From assembly GCA_019056805.1 (NCBI GenBank), contig DXJG01000002.1, positions 191,053 to 223,052 of the forward strand: DNA of 32,000 nt, in the 5' to 3' direction. A program made the position numbers and the translations under genes. How positions within the stretch are numbered: position 1 is the first letter of the stretch; the number at the start of each line of letters is the position of its first letter. This document shows positions 1 to 11,004 of this stretch, piece by piece. Under the pieces are notes generated by a model. The model did no database searches. It saw nothing but the letters and a program-made list of their open reading frames with translations, and had not been told where the DNA came from. Source of the DNA: Candidatus Baldrarchaeota archaeon. Lineage in GTDB: Archaea; Asgardarchaeota; Baldrarchaeia; Baldrarchaeales; DXJG01.

Positions 1-126
1 GTGAGCAATCAGCATAAATAATATTTTCATTTATTGTCCGCACAAAAGATTTAGCAAAAAAGATAAAAATAGAACCTTTATTTGATATCAACAAGTATTA
101 AAAAATCGAGTTATGGGAGGAGAAAA

Positions 127-1065
127 ATGCAAATTACGGACTTATTACTGGGACCATCGATTTGGGTAATAGCCTTCCTTCTACTCATACTAGTGGTTAT
201 AGTCCTTTCATGCATACGAGTACTAGCGGAATATGAAAGGGGAGTAATATTCAGACTTGGAAGAGCATTACCTGGAGTAAAAGGTCCCGGAATTATATTT
301 CTAATACCTATAATTGACAGATTAGTTAAAGTAGACCTAAGAGAACACTTCTTTGAAATACCAAGACAAAGATGTATAACCAAAGATAACGCCCCTGTAG
401 ACATAGATGTTTTGATCTATTATAAAGTAGTTAACGCGCGAGATTCGGTAATCAAAGTTAAAGACTTTAAAGGTGCATCCGTTGGAATCGCGCAAACAAC
501 ACTAAGAGCTGTCGTTGGAGACATTGTTTTAGATGACGTGTTAGCCAAAAGAGAATACATAAACACGGTGCTCAGAGACAAACTTGACGAGGCTACAGAA
601 AGATGGGGAGTAAAAGTTACAACAGTAGAAATTAGAGAAATAGATCCCCCAAGACAAGTCCAAGACGCGATGATTAAACAGATGGAAGCAGAAAGAATTA
701 GAAGAGCAATGGTTACGGAAGCAGACGGTAAAAGGGAAGCATCGATAAAGGTTGCTGAAGGTGAAAAACAGGCAGCCATACTAAAAGCAGAAGGTAAACG
801 AAGAGCAATGATTTTAGAAGCTGAAGGTGAAAGACAAGCAGCAATCTTAAAAGCAGAAGGTTACTCTGCCGCTCTTAATAAAATCTATTCTGTTGCAAAG
901 AACCTTGACTATAAAACAATGGCACTGCAATACCTAGAAACATTGAAATCTCTTGGAGCAAGCCCATCAACTAAGTTTATATTCCCAGCAGAGTTCATGC
1001 AATTAATTGCTCCAATAAGAGAATTCCTAGGCGGGGTTTCGAAGTCTTCAAGTGACAAAGAGTAA
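127..1065 (+). CDS. SPFH/band 7 (stomatin/prohibitin-like, QmcA-type) membrane protein
   Basis: N-terminal TM helix, then EYERGVIFRLGR, PGIIFLIPIIDR, AQTTLRAVVG and coiled-coil EAE repeats. ATG at 127 follows GGGAGG at 115-120; the ORF track starts upstream at TTG 82. Confidence 0.92.
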   Translation: MQITDLLLGPSIWVIAFLLLILVVIVLSCIRVLAEYERGVIFRLGRALPGVKGPGIIFLIPIIDRLVKVDLREHFFEIPRQRCITKDNAPVDIDVLIYYKVVNARDSVIKVKDFKGASVGIAQTTLRAVVGDIVLDDVLAKREYINTVLRDKLDEATERWGVKVTTVEIREIDPPRQVQDAMIKQMEAERIRRAMVTEADGKREASIKVAEGEKQAAILKAEGKRRAMILEAEGERQAAILKAEGYSAALNKIYSVAKNLDYKTMALQYLETLKSLGASPSTKFIFPAEFMQLIAPIREFLGGVSKSSSDKE

Positions 1066-1759: not shown

Positions 1760-4700
1760 TTGAAAGCGATGTTTAAGCATGCTTGCCCGAATTGTGAAGG
1801 TAAAATTTCTGATGAAAGATTAGCTATGGGAGTACCATGCGAAAACTGTCTGTCTATAGATATTAATCAACTAAAAAACCTATGTTCAAAAATGAATCCC
1901 TTGGAATTTAAAATAAAAATTCTGGACATTTTAAGGGCTCAAGGAACACTAAAAAAGTATTATGAACTTGTTAAAATCGAAAAAGAATTGGCCGAGTTTG
2001 AAGATTTATTTAGAAAGGGAACTGGAAGCAGGCTTTGGAGTGCACAGCGAGAGTGGGCAAGAAGAGTCTTAAAAGGGGTAAGCTTTGCCATAACCGCTCC
2101 CACGGGCATAGGTAAAACAGTATTTGGAATGACTATGGCCATATATCTAAGCACTAAAGGCAAAAAATCCTATATTATTCTCCCCACAACAGTACTTGTT
2201 AAGCAGACACTAGATAGAATCAAAGAGTTTTTAGAAAAAACAGGAATTCAAATTAAGGTTGCTGGTTATTACGCCAAACTTTCCAAGGATGAAAGAGAAG
2301 AATTTAAGCATATGGTTGAAACTGGAGACTTTAATATACTTGTTACAACTTCACAATATCTTGCATTAAAATTTGACGAAGTATCAAAACATAAATTCGA
2401 TTTTGTATTCGTTGACGATGTAGATGCGCTCCTTAAGTTATCAAAAAACATCGATAGAGTTTTGTTACTATTAGGGTTCAGCAACGAAGCTATTAATCTA
2501 AGTTTAAGATTAATAAAATTAAAGAAAGCGTATGTACGAGCAAGAGCAAATGAAATAGATAAAATAGAACACGAAATAGAAGAAATAACAGAAAAAATAA
2601 ATTCTCTAAAAGAAAAAACAAAGCCGGGAACATTAATAGTCTCCACTGCAACTGGTAAAGCAAGAGGCGATCGAGTGAAGTTGTTTAGAGAGTTGTTAAA
2701 CTTTACAATCGGGTCAGCAAGTGAAGGTTACAGAAACGTTCAAGACCTTTATATTCCAAGAGAAAGAAACGTAGAAGAACAGTTACATGCATTAGTTAAA
2801 AAACTAGGAGCAGGTGGAATTATCTTTGTCACACTCGAAGAAGGAATAGATTTTGCTGAAAAAATCGCCAATTTTCTAAATGAAAGGGGAGTTAAAGCTG
2901 AAGCTTTCCACGCAGGCAAGAAAAGCCCTGAAATCATAGATCAGTTTTCTAATGGTGAAATAGACATACTTATTGGGGTTGCAAGTCATTATGGACTTTT
3001 AGTCAGAGGTCTTGATCTACCACATCGCGTACGCTACGCTATTTTCACCGGGGTTCCAAAATTCAAATTCAGCTTAGATGTTAGCGAAGAAACCAGTCCA
3101 ACAAGAATATACATGCTTCTATCCGAAATATCAGAATACTTACCCAGCGAGGAAAAAGAAAAAGCCGAAAACTTTCTCAGGAAAATCAGACAATACTTAA
3201 TGAGACTAACACCAACACAGTTACAACAAATTAGAGATGCACTAACTGCCAAAACAAAAATAAATAATACATATCTTCAAAACATCTTAGACCTCTATGT
3301 CAACGTCATAAATTTTGTTGATTCCATGCTTAAAAGAAAAGACATTCTTGATAAGATAAGAGAAAGTCCATTTATATCTCTAGAAAAAATAGACGAAGAA
3401 CTCTATATACTAATACCAGATGTAAGAACCTACATTCAAGCTTCGGGAAGAACATCGAGATTATTTGCAGGAGGAGTAGCTAAAGGGATTTCAATACTCC
3501 TAGTAGATAATGAAAAGATCTTCAACGGTCTTGTAAGGCAACTAAGATGGAGATTCGAAGAAAGCGAATGGAAACATCTAAACGAAGTAGACCTAACTTC
3601 GCTACTTAAAGAAGTCGATGCCGACAGAGAACTTATTTTAAAAATTAAACGAGGAGAAATAACGATAGAATTAAAAGACCCAGTAAAATCAGCACTTCTC
3701 ATAGTAGAATCTCCAAGTAAAGCATTTACTATTTCCACATTTTTCGGCAAACCAGCAAGAAGAAGATTACATGGATTACCAGTCTACGAAGTTGTAACTG
3801 GAGATTTAGACTTAAACGTAGCTGCAAGCGGAGGTCATATTTTTGATCTAGTTACTGAAGAAGGGTTCCACGGTGTGATGACCGAAAACGGGGTTTTCAT
3901 ACCAATATATACAACAATAAAAAGATGTATGACATGCAGAGAACAATTTGTAGAAGATGTAGACAGGTGTCCACGATGTAAATCCACAGAAATAAAAAAC
4001 TCCCTAGATAATGTAAAAGCACTAAGCGAAATAGCCTCTGAAGTAGATATAATCCTTATAGGAACCGATCCAGATTCTGTTACGGGAGATTCAGAAGTTT
4101 TGGTGAATTTAAATGGAAAAGTATTCCTATCTAGGATCGACGAACTATTTGAAAGATTAAAGAGTTCAAAAGAATTTTACTTTTTCACTAAGAGAAATCA
4201 TGAATATCTTGAACCAAAAGATAATAGTTATTTAAAAGTATTAGGAGTTGATAAGCACTTTGACACTCGATGGGTAAATGTAAATTATTTCATTAGGCAT
4301 AAAGTTCAAAAAGAAATTTATGAAATCGAAACAGCAACAGGCAGAAGTATAAAAGTGACTGGAGACCACTCCTTATTTACACTTAAAGATTTCCAGCTTC
4401 AAGAACTTAAAATAAGCGAAATTAAAATCGGAGATATGTTAGTAGTTCCACGAAGACTGGTATGTAATGAAAATAGTCTTGAATATATTGACATTTTAGA
4501 TTTTAAAGACTTAGGTGCGAAAAAAGTAGACGAAAAACATGTTAAGATTGGAAAAAGTAAACCTATACCAAGATACATAAAGCTTGATAAAATTTTTCTC
4601 GAGTTTCTCGGTCTATGGATAGGTGATGGTTCATTCCACAAAGATAGATATGTACGCATTTCTGTCATTGATAAAGAGTCAAGAAAAGTTGTAAAGGAAA

Positions 4701-6754
4701 TAGCTAAGAGATTCGGAGCAAAGATATATGAAGAAAAGGACAATGCAACACTTACAATAATGTCAAGGGCTCTTTACCTTATTTTAAAGAAAGTTTTCGG
4801 TTTAAAGCATGGTGCAGGTTCAAAAGAAGTTCCATCTATAATTTTTTCTCTTTCTAAAGAACAAATATCAGCTTTTCTAAGAGGATACATCAGTGCTGAT
4901 GGTACTGTGTCTAAAGGAGAACCTAATTTTTCAACAAAATCCAAAAAACTCTTTGAACAACTTAGAACGCTATTTCTAATGTTAGGAATTGTGGTTAAAA
5001 AATACGAAGATAACGGGGTTCTTAGAGGATTTATCCATGCAGAGTGGATATCCGATTTCATAAATAAAATTGGCTTTCTTCAGGAAAGTAAAAATAGTAA
5101 GATAACTCCTAAGAAAGGAATAAGGAATTACATAGATGTATTTCCCGTGGAAGGGTTAAAAGGATGCATTAAGACGAATCCCAGTTATGCAGAGGCAATA
5201 TATAGATCTGGGATAATGGGAAGACGGAGATTGGAGAACTTTTTGCCATTTATAAAAAATGAAACATTGAAAGAGACTGTTAAAAGCGTTCTAAATTCGG
5301 ATATTATGGTCGAAAAAGTTGTTAAAATTAGAAAAATAGAAAAATTTAATGATTATGTTTATGATTTTGATACGGAAACTGATAACTTTATAGCAAACAA
5401 TATTCTCGCCCATAATACCGAGGGGGAGAAAATTGGTTGGGATATAGCTACTGTCTTATCACCGTATGCGCACCAAATTAAACGTGTAGAATTTCATGAA
5501 ATAACAAAAATGGCGATTAGGAATGCGCTTGAAAATCTTAAAGAAATAGATGAAAACAGAGTATCAGCACAACTGGTACGTAGAATAGAGGATAGATGGA
5601 TAGGTTTCGAGTTAAGTAGACGTCTTTGGCAAAGATTTCGGGATTATCATCTCTCTGCAGGCAGAGTTCAGACCCCGGTTTTAGGTTGGATAATAGAAAG
5701 ATATAAGGAATTTCTAAAAAGTTGGAAATATGTTTTCTGGGTGAAGCTATCAAATCAATACATAGTGGAGCTCAGAGATCTTGGGGGAAAGCCTTACGAG
5801 ATTGCTGAGAAACTTCGCGGTTCAGATGTTAAAATTATATTCCTTGAGGAAACTTTAGAAGATTTGAATCCACCTCCACCATTTACAACTGATGAAATGT
5901 TGAGAGAAGCATCAAGACTCTTAAAATTCGGTGCACAAGAAACTATGATTCTTGCACAAGCGCTTTTCGAATCCGGTCTAATAACTTACCATAGAACGGA
6001 TAGTCACCGAGTAAGTAATGTAGGAATAAGAATCGCTAAGGAATACATAACTCAAGAAATTGGTGAAGAGTATTTTCATGCAAGAAAATGGGGAACAGAG
6101 GAAGAAGGAGCTCATGAATGTATCCGTCCAACACGTCCACTAAACGTGGAAAGACTAAGAACTCTAATAGAGGAAGGAGTAATAAAAACAGCAGAAACAA
6201 TGACATGGCAACACTACAAACTATATCAACTCATATTCAACAGATTTATTGCAAGCCAAATGACACCTGCGAAAATAAAAAGAATGAAGGCAAAAATAAA
6301 GTTCAATGAAATAGTTGAGACTGAAATAGAAGGAATTACAGAAATAGTTGAACCAGGATTTACAACGATACAACCAATAAAAACGATACCCAAATTAAAA
6401 GAACCACTAAGCGTAGTTGATGTTAAATTCAAAAAAATACCAACAATAAGTCTTTATACGCAAGGAGATATTGTTGAACTCATGAAAAAGAGAGGAATAG
6501 GAAGACCATCTACGTATGCAACAATAATACAAACATTACTTGAAAGAGGTTATGTAGAAGAGAAAAACAAAATGTTAAAACCTACAAAACTGGGAATCAA
6601 AGTATACGAGTACCTATCAAAATTTTACAGCAACTTAGTATCAGAAGAAAGAACTAGAGAACTGGAAAGAAAAATGGAAGAAATAGAAGAAGGAAAGGTA
6701 AATCATCAACAAATCTTAAAGGATCTCTACCAGGAAATAAAAAGTCTCAAATGA
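1760..6754 (+). CDS. rgy: Reverse gyrase (intein-containing precursor)
   Basis: N-terminal Zn finger (CPNC..CENC), SF2 helicase motifs APTGIGKT and DDVD, QASGRTSR, TOPRIM IVESPSKA, second Zn finger, SAGRVQTP, and catalytic GLITYHRTDS (Tyr codon 5987). TTG start follows AGGAGG. Confidence 0.97.
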   Translation: MKAMFKHACPNCEGKISDERLAMGVPCENCLSIDINQLKNLCSKMNPLEFKIKILDILRAQGTLKKYYELVKIEKELAEFEDLFRKGTGSRLWSAQREWARRVLKGVSFAITAPTGIGKTVFGMTMAIYLSTKGKKSYIILPTTVLVKQTLDRIKEFLEKTGIQIKVAGYYAKLSKDEREEFKHMVETGDFNILVTTSQYLALKFDEVSKHKFDFVFVDDVDALLKLSKNIDRVLLLLGFSNEAINLSLRLIKLKKAYVRARANEIDKIEHEIEEITEKINSLKEKTKPGTLIVSTATGKARGDRVKLFRELLNFTIGSASEGYRNVQDLYIPRERNVEEQLHALVKKLGAGGIIFVTLEEGIDFAEKIANFLNERGVKAEAFHAGKKSPEIIDQFSNGEIDILIGVASHYGLLVRGLDLPHRVRYAIFTGVPKFKFSLDVSEETSPTRIYMLLSEISEYLPSEEKEKAENFLRKIRQYLMRLTPTQLQQIRDALTAKTKINNTYLQNILDLYVNVINFVDSMLKRKDILDKIRESPFISLEKIDEELYILIPDVRTYIQASGRTSRLFAGGVAKGISILLVDNEKIFNGLVRQLRWRFEESEWKHLNEVDLTSLLKEVDADRELILKIKRGEITIELKDPVKSALLIVESPSKAFTISTFFGKPARRRLHGLPVYEVVTGDLDLNVAASGGHIFDLVTEEGFHGVMTENGVFIPIYTTIKRCMTCREQFVEDVDRCPRCKSTEIKNSLDNVKALSEIASEVDIILIGTDPDSVTGDSEVLVNLNGKVFLSRIDELFERLKSSKEFYFFTKRNHEYLEPKDNSYLKVLGVDKHFDTRWVNVNYFIRHKVQKEIYEIETATGRSIKVTGDHSLFTLKDFQLQELKISEIKIGDMLVVPRRLVCNENSLEYIDILDFKDLGAKKVDEKHVKIGKSKPIPRYIKLDKIFLEFLGLWIGDGSFHKDRYVRISVIDKESRKVVKEIAKRFGAKIYEEKDNATLTIMSRALYLILKKVFGLKHGAGSKEVPSIIFSLSKEQISAFLRGYISADGTVSKGEPNFSTKSKKLFEQLRTLFLMLGIVVKKYEDNGVLRGFIHAEWISDFINKIGFLQESKNSKITPKKGIRNYIDVFPVEGLKGCIKTNPSYAEAIYRSGIMGRRRLENFLPFIKNETLKETVKSVLNSDIMVEKVVKIRKIEKFNDYVYDFDTETDNFIANNILAHNTEGEKIGWDIATVLSPYAHQIKRVEFHEITKMAIRNALENLKEIDENRVSAQLVRRIEDRWIGFELSRRLWQRFRDYHLSAGRVQTPVLGWIIERYKEFLKSWKYVFWVKLSNQYIVELRDLGGKPYEIAEKLRGSDVKIIFLEETLEDLNPPPPFTTDEMLREASRLLKFGAQETMILAQALFESGLITYHRTDSHRVSNVGIRIAKEYITQEIGEEYFHARKWGTEEEGAHECIRPTRPLNVERLRTLIEEGVIKTAETMTWQHYKLYQLIFNRFIASQMTPAKIKRMKAKIKFNEIVETEIEGITEIVEPGFTTIQPIKTIPKLKEPLSVVDVKFKKIPTISLYTQGDIVELMKKRGIGRPSTYATIIQTLLERGYVEEKNKMLKPTKLGIKVYEYLSKFYSNLVSEERTRELERKMEEIEEGKVNHQQILKDLYQEIKSLK
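4076..5416 (+). mobile_element. Intein with LAGLIDADG homing endonuclease (447 aa) in reverse gyrase
   Basis: Block A SVTGDSEV, block B TGDHSLF, LAGLIDADG-like FLGLWIGDGS and FLRGYISADG, block F/G VYDFDTETDNFIANNILAHN, then +1 Thr. Removal restores TDPD-TEGEKIGWD. Confidence 0.95.
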
Positions 6755-6795: not shown

Positions 6796-7350
6796 TTAAG
6801 CTCTAAACCACGTAAATACGTAATATATCGGTTTACCGTCAGGACTTATTGTTGATATTATGAATTTCTTTCTCACGGTAGTTGCAAGTCTACCGGATCT
6901 CACTATTTCTAATGCAGAAAGTTTCGAGTTCATCGGTAAAACATGAACTAAGAAAGGGGCGTGATCAATTCCAGGACCATGCTCATAAACAGCAAAATCA
7001 GCACCAAACTTCATTCCAGGCCGAACAACATATCCTTTCTCCCTAAGATCTTTATACACTATGTATTTTTCCTCAAATTTTTCGTGAATTTTTGACGCAA
7101 TTTTCTTAAATTCTTCAAATGTTAATTCACGGTTCGTCTCCGCATCTATTAAAATAAGTCTATTCTTTTCCATTAAATATAACGCTTCTAAAAAAGATAG
7201 TTCTAAAGGCTTATTGAAACTAGGGGCTTTCGGCTTTCTGATTCCAAGAGGTTTACCATAAAATCCTTCAGCATAAAGTTTTGAGCCTTGTTCAGGATTC
7301 CAAACGACAACTCTACTTCCAAGAAATTCTCCTCGAATCTTTTCCGACAT
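6796..7350 (-). CDS. endA: tRNA splicing endonuclease, catalytic (alpha) subunit
   Basis: YKDLREKGYVVRPGMKFGADFAVYEHGPGIDHAPF and VRKK carry the Tyr/His/Lys triad; LELSFLEALYL is also present. Confidence 0.95.
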   Translation of the reverse strand: MSEKIRGEFLGSRVVVWNPEQGSKLYAEGFYGKPLGIRKPKAPSFNKPLELSFLEALYLMEKNRLILIDAETNRELTFEEFKKIASKIHEKFEEKYIVYKDLREKGYVVRPGMKFGADFAVYEHGPGIDHAPFLVHVLPMNSKLSALEIVRSGRLATTVRKKFIISTISPDGKPIYYVFTWFRA

Positions 7351-7360
7351 TTTTTCCCTC

Positions 7361-8014
7361 CTAACCTAACTTACCGACTGCTATGATTCTTACCGCATCC
7401 GCTGCATCTTCTGCAATATCAGCAATCTCCTCAATATGCCTAACAAAATCTATCACTTTAATTAAGGTTTTTGCGCTTATATCCAAGTTGTAAAGCGTGT
7501 GGACAATAACTCTTTGTAGTACATCAACTTTTCTCTCCGATTCGTCAACTTCTTCAGCTATCTTTATGGCTTTTTCCACGTTTTGAGGAAGCATGAAAAT
7601 TGCTTCTCTTAATTTTTCAACAGACTTTACAACCCATTCAATGAATTCTCTAAACATGTCAGCTAATTCGCCCTGAGGACGCCAATCACGTAAATGTGAT
7701 AGTCTAAAGCTCGTTGCGTCAGCATAATCAGCTATTTCATCTGCAATAAGACTTAATCGCATAAGATCTTCTCGCTGTATTAATGTAGCAGCCTTAGAAA
7801 CCTCATCTAGTAATGCTCTTTTTATTTCATCTGCTTCTTTTTCTAAGGACGAAATTTTTTCTAACCTTTGCTCAATTGATTCCCATCTGTTGTTTATCCA
7901 ATCTTCTACCATAAGAGATAGTTCTTTTACGGCTGTTATTACTTTTCTTATATGGTCTTGGTACATATCAAGTGCTTTTCTTTCTTCGTCATTTGTATAT
8001 GGATTTATAACCAT
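7361..8014 (-). CDS. DUF47 / PhoU-like phosphate transport regulator
   Basis: Two helical repeats, LEKEADEIKR, REDLMRLSLIADEIADYA, ESERKVD and IEEIADIAEDAAD. Confidence 0.85.
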   Translation of the reverse strand: MVINPYTNDEERKALDMYQDHIRKVITAVKELSLMVEDWINNRWESIEQRLEKISSLEKEADEIKRALLDEVSKAATLIQREDLMRLSLIADEIADYADATSFRLSHLRDWRPQGELADMFREFIEWVVKSVEKLREAIFMLPQNVEKAIKIAEEVDESERKVDVLQRVIVHTLYNLDISAKTLIKVIDFVRHIEEIADIAEDAADAVRIIAVGKLG

Positions 8015-8504: not shown

Positions 8505-9479
8505 ATGTTATTGACAGACCTTTTTGAAAAAAATAAATTAAGATTTCTACTGTTTGGCGGTAAAGGCGGTGTAGGAAAAACAAGTTGTGCAGCAGCGACT
8601 TCCCTTTGGGCAGCAGAAAATGGAAAAGAAACCCTAGTAATTAGTACAGACCCAGCTCACAGTTTATCGGATAGTTTCGGAGAAAAAATAGGAGATTCTA
8701 TCAAAAAAATAAACGGAATAAAAAACCTCTATGGTCTTGAAATAGACCCTAAAAAAGCAATACGTGAATATAGCGAAAAACTACAATCAACACCAGATTT
8801 AGGCCTACCAATAGATGTACAAACGGACGAACTCGAGGAATTGACATCTCTTACGCCGCCAGGAGCTGACGAGGCTCTTGCTTTTGCAAAAGTTTTAGAA
8901 TTTATAGAAAGACCCGAATATGACCTCATAATTTTCGACACTGCTCCAACTGGGCATACTTTAAGACTTCTTAGTTTACCTGATATTTTAAACAGTTGGG
9001 TTGGAAAACTCATTAAAATGAGAGCATGGATTCTTCGAATGACCTCCTTCTTTAAAAGAATTTTAGGTAAAGGAGGAGAAGAGGACAAAACGATGGAATA
9101 TCTTGAAAAACTAAAAAATACTATTGAGACAGCAAGAGCAGAACTGTCAAATGAAGAGGAGACACGATTTATACCAGTTATGATTCCAGAGGCCATGTCA
9201 ATCTACGAGACGGAGCGCTTAGTAAGAACTTTATACGAATACGAGATTCCAGTTACACACATCATTGTTAATATGATTCATCCAGAAGTTCTAGGATGTA
9301 CTTTTTGTGCAGCTCGTAGAAGCATGCAAATAGAGAATCTAAAAATTATTAATGAGTATTATTCTGACTTTTCAATAGTTTATATGCCTCTCTTTCCGAC
9401 CGAAATTAGAGGTATTTCGAAGCTTAGGGAATTTGCAAAATACCTTTTTGAGGAGGAATTTATACCTAAATTATATTAG
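8505..9479 (+). CDS. arsA: ArsA/Get3(TRC40)-family ATPase
   Basis: GGKGGVGKTS P-loop, STDPAHSLSD, PPGADEA, DTAPTGHTLRLL and a C-terminal CTFC. Single ATPase domain. Confidence 0.93.
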   Translation: MLLTDLFEKNKLRFLLFGGKGGVGKTSCAAATSLWAAENGKETLVISTDPAHSLSDSFGEKIGDSIKKINGIKNLYGLEIDPKKAIREYSEKLQSTPDLGLPIDVQTDELEELTSLTPPGADEALAFAKVLEFIERPEYDLIIFDTAPTGHTLRLLSLPDILNSWVGKLIKMRAWILRMTSFFKRILGKGGEEDKTMEYLEKLKNTIETARAELSNEEETRFIPVMIPEAMSIYETERLVRTLYEYEIPVTHIIVNMIHPEVLGCTFCAARRSMQIENLKIINEYYSDFSIVYMPLFPTEIRGISKLREFAKYLFEEEFIPKLY

Positions 9480-9672: not shown

Positions 9673-11004
9673 GTGACACAAACATCTACTATAGTATTCC
9701 TAGGAGGAGCGCGAGAAGTAGGTAGAACATCGATATTATTGGAGCTTGAAGATCTAAATATTCTACTTGATTGTGGAATTAATGTAGGTGGAAAGGGAGA
9801 GAATAGATATCCCCTCTCAATGCCGAAAAAACCAGACATAACAATTTTATCTCATGCTCATCTTGATCATGCAGGCTATATTCCAGCGATTGCTAAAAAA
9901 TATCAATGTAAAATTTATGCTACACCCCCGACACAAGATATATCCGAAATTTTACACATAGACCTACTAAAAATCGCTAAAGAAAGTAGAGATGCTTTAC
10001 CCTTTGAAATGAAAGATGTTATGGCTCTCAGAAAATACTTTATTGATTCCTCATACAGAATACCAATTTCCCTAAACGATAATGTCAAGCTTACCATGTA
10101 TAGGTCTGGTCACATCTTAGGCTCAGCTATGATAAAAATTGAAACAGAGTCACTTTCCATCCTTTACACCGGAGATTTATCAATGCGAAATAGTAAAACT
10201 CTTGAAATGGCAGATACAGATGTTGGAAAAGTAGACATACTCATAATTGAATCTACCTATGGGCATTCCTCAGATAAACATCCAAGTAGACAAAAAACAG
10301 AACAAGAGTTCATAAAAGCAATCCAAAAGACCATTAAAAGAGGAGGAAAAATTCTGGTACCTGCATTTGCAGTAGGCAGAGCTCAAGAAGTCATGCTTAC
10401 ATTAGAATCTTACATGAGAAGTAAAGCCCTATCAAATGTCCCAATCTATATTGATGGAATGATAAGAAAAATTAACGAACTCTACAGAATCTACTGGTTT
10501 TACTTAAGACCGCAAATAAGAAGAACAATAAGATATGCAAAAAGAAACCCACTAGAATCTAAACTATTTACGATAGTAAGAGACAGAGATGAACCCGTTG
10601 AACGAGAAGAACCATGTATAATCATAAGTACCTCAGGGATGTTAGAAGGCGGACCGGCAATGTTTTATCTAAAAGAACTTGGCAATGATCCTAAAAACCT
10701 TATTTGTCTAACAGGTTACCAAGTACCAGGTACTAGAGGAAGAAAATTACTTGATGGAGAGAAAGAAATAGAATTACCAACCGGAGAGGAAATTGAAGTT
10801 TCAGCAGAAGTAAAATTATTTGATTTTAGCGCGCACGCAGATCAACCCAGCTTGTTCAGGTTTATTTCTTATTTAAAAGGAGTACAAAAAGTATTTTGCA
10901 TACACGGAGAAGAAAATAAAGTATTAGATTTTTCAGAAAGAATAAAGAAAAATAAAAAAATTGAAGCATATGCCCCCAAAGTCGGAGAAGAAATAACGCT
11001 CTAA
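9673..11004 (+). CDS. Metallo-beta-lactamase/beta-CASP ribonuclease (aCPSF2-like)
   Basis: FLGGAREVGR, LDCG, SHAHLDHAG, GHILGSA, YTGD, ESTYG, PAFAVGRAQE, FSAHAD and HGE. No KH domains. Confidence 0.92.
   Translation: MTQTSTIVFLGGAREVGRTSILLELEDLNILLDCGINVGGKGENRYPLSMPKKPDITILSHAHLDHAGYIPAIAKKYQCKIYATPPTQDISEILHIDLLKIAKESRDALPFEMKDVMALRKYFIDSSYRIPISLNDNVKLTMYRSGHILGSAMIKIETESLSILYTGDLSMRNSKTLEMADTDVGKVDILIIESTYGHSSDKHPSRQKTEQEFIKAIQKTIKRGGKILVPAFAVGRAQEVMLTLESYMRSKALSNVPIYIDGMIRKINELYRIYWFYLRPQIRRTIRYAKRNPLESKLFTIVRDRDEPVEREEPCIIISTSGMLEGGPAMFYLKELGNDPKNLICLTGYQVPGTRGRKLLDGEKEIELPTGEEIEVSAEVKLFDFSAHADQPSLFRFISYLKGVQKVFCIHGEENKVLDFSERIKKNKKIEAYAPKVGEEITL

Follow-up and report, generated by a model that had tools for sequence, protein, structure and literature searches.

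The locus described here raises the question of what lies between the two halves of the metal-binding motif in the reverse gyrase of a Candidatus Baldrarchaeota archaeon, and where it came from. The window (the whole stretch of DNA analyzed, 32,000 nucleotides of contig DXJG01000002.1) contains at 1760-6754 on the forward strand a single uninterrupted open reading frame (ORF) of 1664 codons, the product of which is a reverse gyrase (gene rgy). A preliminary description had placed in it a 447-residue LAGLIDADG intein splitting the TOPRIM motif DPD/TEGE (a slash within a sequence marks a junction throughout), and the junctions, Pfam matches and motifs agree with this; the interval then given, 4067-5425, extends into the exteins by three codons at either end. 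The presence of an intein in rgy is confirmed and cannot be due to chance. We regard it as very likely that this is a genuine class 1 intein with a two-motif LAGLIDADG endonuclease, inserted in-frame between the second Asp of the TOPRIM DxD and the following Thr-Glu, and that it is a member of an allelic family in a homing cycle.

The two junctions read GTDPD / SVTGDSEV...NILAHN / TEGEKIGW, so that the intein lies exactly within GTDPD/TEGEKIGW. Pfam Intein_splicing was matched over residues 792-1219 (E 8.6e-24), and LAGLIDADG_3 was matched inside the intein in two stretches (E 2e-18). The residues of a class 1 intein were all present, namely Ser1, the TxxH of block B and a C-terminal His-Asn followed by Thr+1; block F carries YVYDF. 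Both LAGLIDADG motifs retain their catalytic acidic residue. In an alignment of 30 related inteins S1, T95, D97 and H98 were invariant, as were G179, W181 and G185 of the first endonuclease motif and K250 and P253 between the motifs, while D184 of the first motif and D275 and G276 of the second were nearly so. An AlphaFold2 model of the intein, computed on the 30-intein alignment, had a mean pLDDT of 93.5. Foldseek comparison of this model with the PDB returned PI-PkoII (TM 0.80), the TliVMA intein (0.75) and PI-PfuI (0.68), and I-DmoI was also matched; the model thus contains an endonuclease fold set into a Hint domain. PI-PkoII was the top match among solved structures by sequence as well (79 bits).

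The host protein combines a Zn finger, a superfamily 2 (SF2) helicase module, TOPRIM and a type IA topoisomerase domain with its catalytic Tyr in one chain (Pfam zf_Rg, DEAD/ResIII, Toprim, which stops at residue 772, and Topoisom_bac). The reverse gyrase profile TIGR01054 (NCBIfam) was matched in two pieces of 824 and 582 bits, both of which exceed the cut-off, and the two halves abut at profile positions 730/728. The spliced extein aligned without gaps to the intein-less reverse gyrases of two congeners (IGTDPD/TEGEKIGWDI) and to 75 other rgy ORFs. As the profile halves abut and the extein alignment is free of gaps, removal of the intein restores a contiguous host sequence. The likely start codon is the ATG at 1769, although the frame is already open from a TTG at 1760; the database copy of the same protein (P0002, 1661 aa) has the ATG at 1769 as its first residue.

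Searches of protein collections identified five other reverse gyrases with the identical junction as the closest relatives of the intein (39%-53% identity). The nearest of these (P0003, 53% identical) is encoded on an archaeal-looking contig and another (P0021) on a bacterial-looking one; the named same-site proteins are from metagenome-assembled genomes (MAGs) of Aquificota and are annotated merely as 'reverse gyrase'. A DNA-pattern scan of the GTDB species representatives for HN/TEGE.I(A or G)W gave six loci besides the present genome, with both full-length and mini forms: three in Aquificota, two in Woesearchaeota and one in a MAG labelled Gammaproteobacteria which has an Aquificota-type junction. 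The last of these (L107, QOAS01000045.1) encodes a 1686-aa reverse gyrase in which junction and intein are near-Aquificota (84% identity to P0004), and the contig was probably assigned to the wrong bin. At least 570 stretches in the species representatives encode a relative of reverse gyrase, and the site is thus filled in about 1% of rgy loci; among the nearest 80 of these at least 570 loci, all 75 rgy ORFs recovered had an empty DPD/TEGE. By these counts the site is rarely filled, and the earlier view that it is not the classical one was borne out. Mini-inteins without an endonuclease at DPD/TEGE are 182-257 aa long. Those of Aquificota share 72%-86% identity with full-length Aquificota inteins in the Hint part, keep residues 1 to ~136 and lack residues ~137-396, and to judge from these alignments they look like in-place deletions of the endonuclease. 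Alleles of all three kinds expected in a homing cycle, full-length, mini and empty, therefore occur. By sequence comparison, DPD/TEGE is a second place of insertion in rgy, rarely used, and its allelic inteins form a family common to Archaea and Aquificota. No description of it was found in the literature searched, in which the papers that mention both reverse gyrase and inteins state no insertion sites and to which curated intein lists did not belong; inteins in reverse gyrase and inteins in active-site motifs are already known (PMC4760082, PMC5050341).

The first site is the one beside the catalytic Tyr. That the classical rgy inteins start with Cys and sit at this position, as stated in the preliminary description, was seen in Pyrococcus horikoshii, Methanocaldococcus/Methanotorris and Thermococcus, and the corresponding motif is indeed empty in the present gene. 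When the GTDB species representatives were scanned for HN/xTYHRTD, 18 stretches were found. Fifteen of them are rgy genes and two look like topoisomerase I genes of candidate-phyla bacteria; the remaining one (L117, an ORF of 24 aa) was a chance match and was rejected as an intein locus. The rgy matches belong to Thermococcus, Archaeoglobaceae, Aquificota, Woesearchaeota and Undinarchaeota, in every case with GL/C...HN/CTYHRT. A protein search seeded with a Thermococcus intein returned reverse gyrases of Thermococcus guaymasensis, T. waiotapuensis, T. profundus, P. horikoshii, Methanocaldococcus spp. and Methanotorris formicicus; their inteins are all Tyr-adjacent with Cys1, and DPD/TEGE is intact in the Thermococcales ones. 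These Tyr-site inteins measure 410 aa in P. horikoshii, ~494 aa in Methanocaldococcus and 488-489 aa in Thermococcus, and that of T. kodakarensis Rgy has been reported as 489 aa (PMC11409957). Across 61 Thermococcales genomes, the Toprim domains of rgy and TopA all matched their profiles without a break, and a DPD/TEGE intein was found in none of the 61; about one-fifth of the rgy ORFs in these genomes are ~1,720 aa long, a length that a Tyr-site intein would account for. TopA was without an intein in the first five Thermococcus genomes examined. The long TopA ORFs of the 61-genome sample keep an unbroken Toprim, and the TopA intein must therefore lie elsewhere.

Three further loci relate to the Tyr site. 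One rgy on a Woesearchaeota MAG contig (L112, CAZNIQ010000027.1; also P0129) carries two inteins, one of 257 aa at DPD/TEGE and one of 456 aa at the Tyr site (GL/C...HN/CTYHRT). The two apparent bacterial topoisomerase I genes, from Saccharibacteria and Parcubacteria MAGs (L125, L126), have inteins which end in HN/CTYHRTDSLNL; on this evidence the Tyr-adjacent site would be common to TopA of candidate phyla and reverse gyrase.

Empty alleles were also found close to the present one. In two congeneric genomes rgy is uninterrupted (IGTDPDTEGEKIGWDI), with 90% identity at the protein level and 80.6% at the DNA level, and their empty site (L159, L160) is centered on GATCCCGAT/ACCGAGGGAGAG. Two additional studies yielded contigs with the identical allele, intein included, and the intein is likewise present in a 94% identical relative recovered from a hydrothermal-vent metagenome. 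Same-strain contigs joining across the intein were found in none of the public metagenome runs, although contigs cannot show absence. A joint in run X5 (3921 to 5415, with a 22-letter side) was rejected as an empty allele, since it reads IATDPD/TEGE and comes from the rgy of another organism. GC content at third codon positions (GC3) was 0.235 in the intein and 0.25-0.26 in the exteins, so the composition of the intein matches that of the host. This host-like GC3, together with the flat identity to the congeners described below, indicates that the insertion is not very recent.

The relationship of the rgy intein to inteins at other sites was analyzed on sequences which had been collected by similarity to one query and are not independent. 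Against this query the same-site rgy inteins had a median of 265 bits (~44% identity), followed by inteins in the Asp box of ATPases (median 199 bits, range 56-232; 33%-37%), inteins in motif I of DHH proteins (group minimum and maximum 141 and 175 bits; 29%-35%), the pol-c inteins of PolB (median 71 bits, range 36-95; 29%-30%) and the Tyr-site rgy inteins (median 50 bits, range 37-74; ~23%). In a maximum-likelihood (ML) tree of 78 full-length inteins (LG+C20 PMSF; ultrafast bootstrap / SH-aLRT) the inteins at DPD/TEGE (rgy-DPD) formed a clade (100/99) with the DHH inteins as sister group (73/92; 91 in a quick tree with P0258). The pol-c inteins fell outside a group of 58 sequences which held the rgy-DPD inteins, the ATPase inteins and several others (96/93). 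When a pol-c intein from outside Thermococcales (P0258, YGD/.../TDS) was added in the quick tree, the pol-c clade had a support of 81 and was placed outside at 92. The Tyr-site inteins were a separate clade (100/100), and the intein phylogeny called for in the preliminary description thus gave no grouping with them. They resemble the present intein in host enzyme, in having a LAGLIDADG endonuclease, in size (410-495 aa) and in interrupting a catalytic motif, but lie ~190 residues downstream beside the catalytic Tyr and have Cys1 and Cys+1. The present intein was therefore rejected as a classical r-Gyr allele on the grounds of site, identity and clade.

The most similar non-allelic inteins are those of the ATPases. 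More than 130 were found in PF00437 ATPases (type II/IV secretion, VirB11/FlaI-like), mostly of DPANN archaea, with the junction (I or V)ED/SVTGD...NILAHN/T(L, R or P)E(L or I) located 21 residues after Walker A, that is, in the Asp box. They share 29%-37% full-length identity and nearly the same termini (SVTGD..., NILAHN/T) with the rgy intein, but reside in another host protein and are 50-80 residues longer. Many of the Asp-box ATPases (P0006-P0121 and others) are 1,500-2,200 aa long and contain further inteins, for example in Walker A (GSGK/T). We take KlbA inteins to have Ala1 and Cys+1, which would make the Asp box a different site from the catalogued KlbA one. The two DHH inteins (P0136, P0160) lie in motif I (H-N-D/T-D-G) of DHH-family phosphoesterases (RecJ/GAN-like, DHH-CID/DHHA1). 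Like the rgy-DPD inteins they have an Asp/Thr junction within a metal-binding motif (H-x-D/T-D-G); they differ in host and in a penultimate Lys in place of His, and are only two sequences. The pol-c inteins of Thermococcales read YAD/SVTGDT(E or Q)V...NGILVHN/TDG, and the resemblance of N-terminus and Asp/Thr junction pointed out in the preliminary description is therefore real. Representatives such as PI-PkoII/Tko Pol-2 and Tli Pol-2 share with the rgy-DPD inteins the SVTGD start, Asp at -1, HN/Thr+1, a position inside an acidic metal-binding motif (YAD/TDG) and the Hint plus LAGLIDADG architecture, but are found in another host (PolB motif C, YxD/TD) and lie outside the group of the rgy intein in the best trees. 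Asp at -1 and Thr at +1 were found in all 139 ATPase inteins and likewise in the rgy-DPD, DHH and pol-c inteins.

An intein in a mycobacteriophage TOPRIM protein has been placed in the TOPRIM active site by Kelley et al. 2016 (PMC5050341); its host is a primase/topoisomerase-like protein, and the likeness to the rgy intein is conceptual only. A source within the genome itself was rejected, since none of its polymerase or other inteins matched above 47 bits and both of its T2SSE ATPase genes lack inteins. The genome is rich in inteins, and the long ORFs at C9:18941.. (1752 aa), C9:20699.. (1047 aa) and C17:51472.. (1352 aa) are among the carriers; the inteins of these ORFs are distant from the rgy intein (at most 47 bits).

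The position of the intein suggests how it would act on its host. D111, D113 and E115 of E. coli topoisomerase I (TDPDREGE) correspond to D770, D772 and E1221 here. The intein separates the DxD from the following Glu, and the precursor would be unable to assemble the acidic Mg2+-binding cluster; with the cluster split in this way, topoisomerase activity would require splicing, on which the cell would then depend. The expected reaction would begin with an N-O acyl shift at Ser1 and transesterification to Thr+1, and cyclization of Asn447 and an O-N shift would then leave DPD-TEGE. The predicted endonuclease would cut an empty DPD/TEGE allele, and repair would copy the intein in. The family at the second rgy site is scattered through Archaea and Aquificota in full-length, mini and empty stages. 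Around it lies a larger set of inteins that share Ser1, Asp at -1 and Thr at +1 and also occupy the ATPase Asp box, DHH motif I and, as more remote members, PolB motif C.

Several points weigh against a genuine intein in a homing cycle at this site. Splicing and endonuclease activity are deduced from conserved residues and the predicted fold. Comparison with the congeners in 60-nt bins around the site revealed no co-conversion tract; nucleotide identity was ~80% on both sides of the junction, equal to the rest of the gene, and with identity flat across the junction, gain here and loss in the sister lineage are indistinguishable. No close donor for the intein was found, the nearest relative being 53% identical, and the sister group of the rgy-DPD clade (DHH, 73/92) is weakly resolved. 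We nevertheless prefer this explanation to the others considered. That the insert has decayed and no longer splices, leaving a pseudogene or a protein that is helicase only, has nothing specific in its favor and is highly improbable: the 1664-codon frame is open, S1, T95/H98, H446/N447 and T+1 are all present, the gene is the sole rgy of an otherwise (hyper)thermophilic-looking genome and the allele is conserved in related strains. It is also unlikely that the intein is more than a selfish passenger and has been co-opted as a conditional (for example temperature-dependent) switch which times the appearance of active reverse gyrase. The blocked metal site of the sole rgy, the host-like composition of the intein and its retention in 94%-100% identical strains from several studies would fit such a switch, and conditional splicing is documented for an archaeal RadA intein (PMC11409957). 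However, a redox trap would need a Cys at position 1 or +1 and neither position has one, the congeners live without the intein, the endonuclease has kept both its motifs, as a mobile element would, and insertion into active sites is a general rule for inteins (PMC4760082, PMC5050341). The earlier proposal that splicing gates gyrase activity is a reasonable inference, since the genome has only this rgy, but nothing points to regulated splicing.

For the origin of the family, the preliminary description had proposed ectopic colonization from polB, that is, a jump of a pol-c intein from YxD/TD into rgy. The SVTGD start, Asp at -1 and HN/T end common to the Thermococcales pol-c and rgy-DPD inteins speak for this, as does the rank of PI-PkoII, a pol-c intein, as top solved structure in both sequence and fold; in approximately unbiased (AU) tests a union of rgy-DPD and pol-c was not rejected (p 0.20 with 34 rows, 0.55 with 78 rows) under LG+G4, a model more prone to long-branch effects. 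The ATPase and DHH inteins are nevertheless closer than pol-c in bit score, and the PMSF trees set pol-c outside the group holding rgy-DPD (96/93, and 92 with P0258). Among the 161 of ~260 hit proteins with mappable intein boundaries there was one pol-c host (P0258, 101 bits), and the polymerase inteins of the genome itself are as distant as stated above. A jump from polB is therefore a doubtful origin. By sequence the intein stands apart from the Tyr-site inteins and belongs to a wider 'Asp/Ser1...HisAsn/Thr' assemblage which includes pol-c; within it, other groups are closer in sequence and better supported as a source than PolB. Inteins in unrelated hosts are 30%-37% similar over their full length, endonuclease included, which implies that ectopic moves occurred at some time. 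The Asp/Thr sites concerned (TOPRIM DPD/TE, ATPase ED/T.E, DHH H.D/TDG and PolB motif C Y.D/TD) are all acidic metal-binding motifs, and the junction they have in common suggests that the choice of sites open to the lineage is limited by junction chemistry. We tentatively propose, as an idea with somewhat less than an even chance of being correct, that a single LAGLIDADG lineage with Ser1, Asp(-1) and Thr(+1) hopped repeatedly among non-homologous enzymes, always into carboxylate metal-binding Asp/Thr motifs, with junction chemistry and not host-gene homology limiting ectopic settling, and that homing in rgy then crossed the Archaea-Bacteria divide into Aquificota.

The genome assembly has 1.92 Mb in 18 contigs with 35.5% GC and is ~91% complete. 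It contains one rgy and additionally one TopA of 712 aa. An ESCRT-II protein with an EAP30 domain is encoded at C17:171139-171810 (L165; 97 bits, exceeding the Pfam cut-off), and the organism is presumably an Asgard archaeon and, with reverse gyrase, a thermophilic one. The neighbors of rgy are ordinary housekeeping genes, and no mobile-element genes flanking rgy were found among the neighbors in the window (Table 1). An antisense ORF at 4399-4743 inside the intein shows no sign of being a gene.

Table 1. Positions in the window of the parts of the reverse gyrase gene, of its intein and of neighboring genes.
Feature	Position	Strand	Details
SPFH/Band 7 protein	82-1065	+	rgy neighbor
N-extein	1769-4075	+	Zn finger, SF2 helicase-like domain, first TOPRIM part; ends GTDPD
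Intein	4076-5416	+	aa 773-1219, 447 aa; Ser1 ... His446-Asn447, then Thr+1
Hint domain, N-terminal part	4076-4480	+	intein aa 1-135; block A SVTGD, block B TGDH (Thr95, His98)
LAGLIDADG motif 1	4607-4633	+	LGLWIGDGS, acidic residue Asp184
LAGLIDADG motif 2	4877-4906	+	LRGYISADGT, acidic residue Asp275
Hint domain, C-terminal part	5273-5416	+	intein aa 400-447; block F YVYDFDTETDNF, block G NILAHN
C-extein	5417-6754	+	from TEGEKIGW (remaining TOPRIM acidic motif), type IA topoisomerase domain, stop codon
GLITYHRT, catalytic-Tyr motif	5975-5998	+	aa 1406-1413; classical rgy intein site, uninterrupted here
tRNA-splicing endonuclease	6796-7350	-	rgy neighbor
PhoU-like DUF47 protein	7361-8014	-	rgy neighbor
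ArsA/Get3-type ATPase	8505-9479	+	rgy neighbor
beta-CASP RNase	9673-11004	+	rgy neighbor

The rgy intein is a real and tidy case, yet an ordinary kind of element which in kind will not surprise a specialist. Its interest lies in the site, since this second rgy insertion point splits the TOPRIM Mg2+ site instead of flanking the catalytic Tyr and displays the whole homing cycle in nature, with full-length, mini and empty alleles and with empty ones within the same genus. Candidate substrates are thereby at hand for a predicted thermostable homing endonuclease and for a Ser1/Thr+1 splicing element, and the link to the ATPase Asp-box, DHH and pol-c inteins offers a data set on how inteins reach non-homologous sites.

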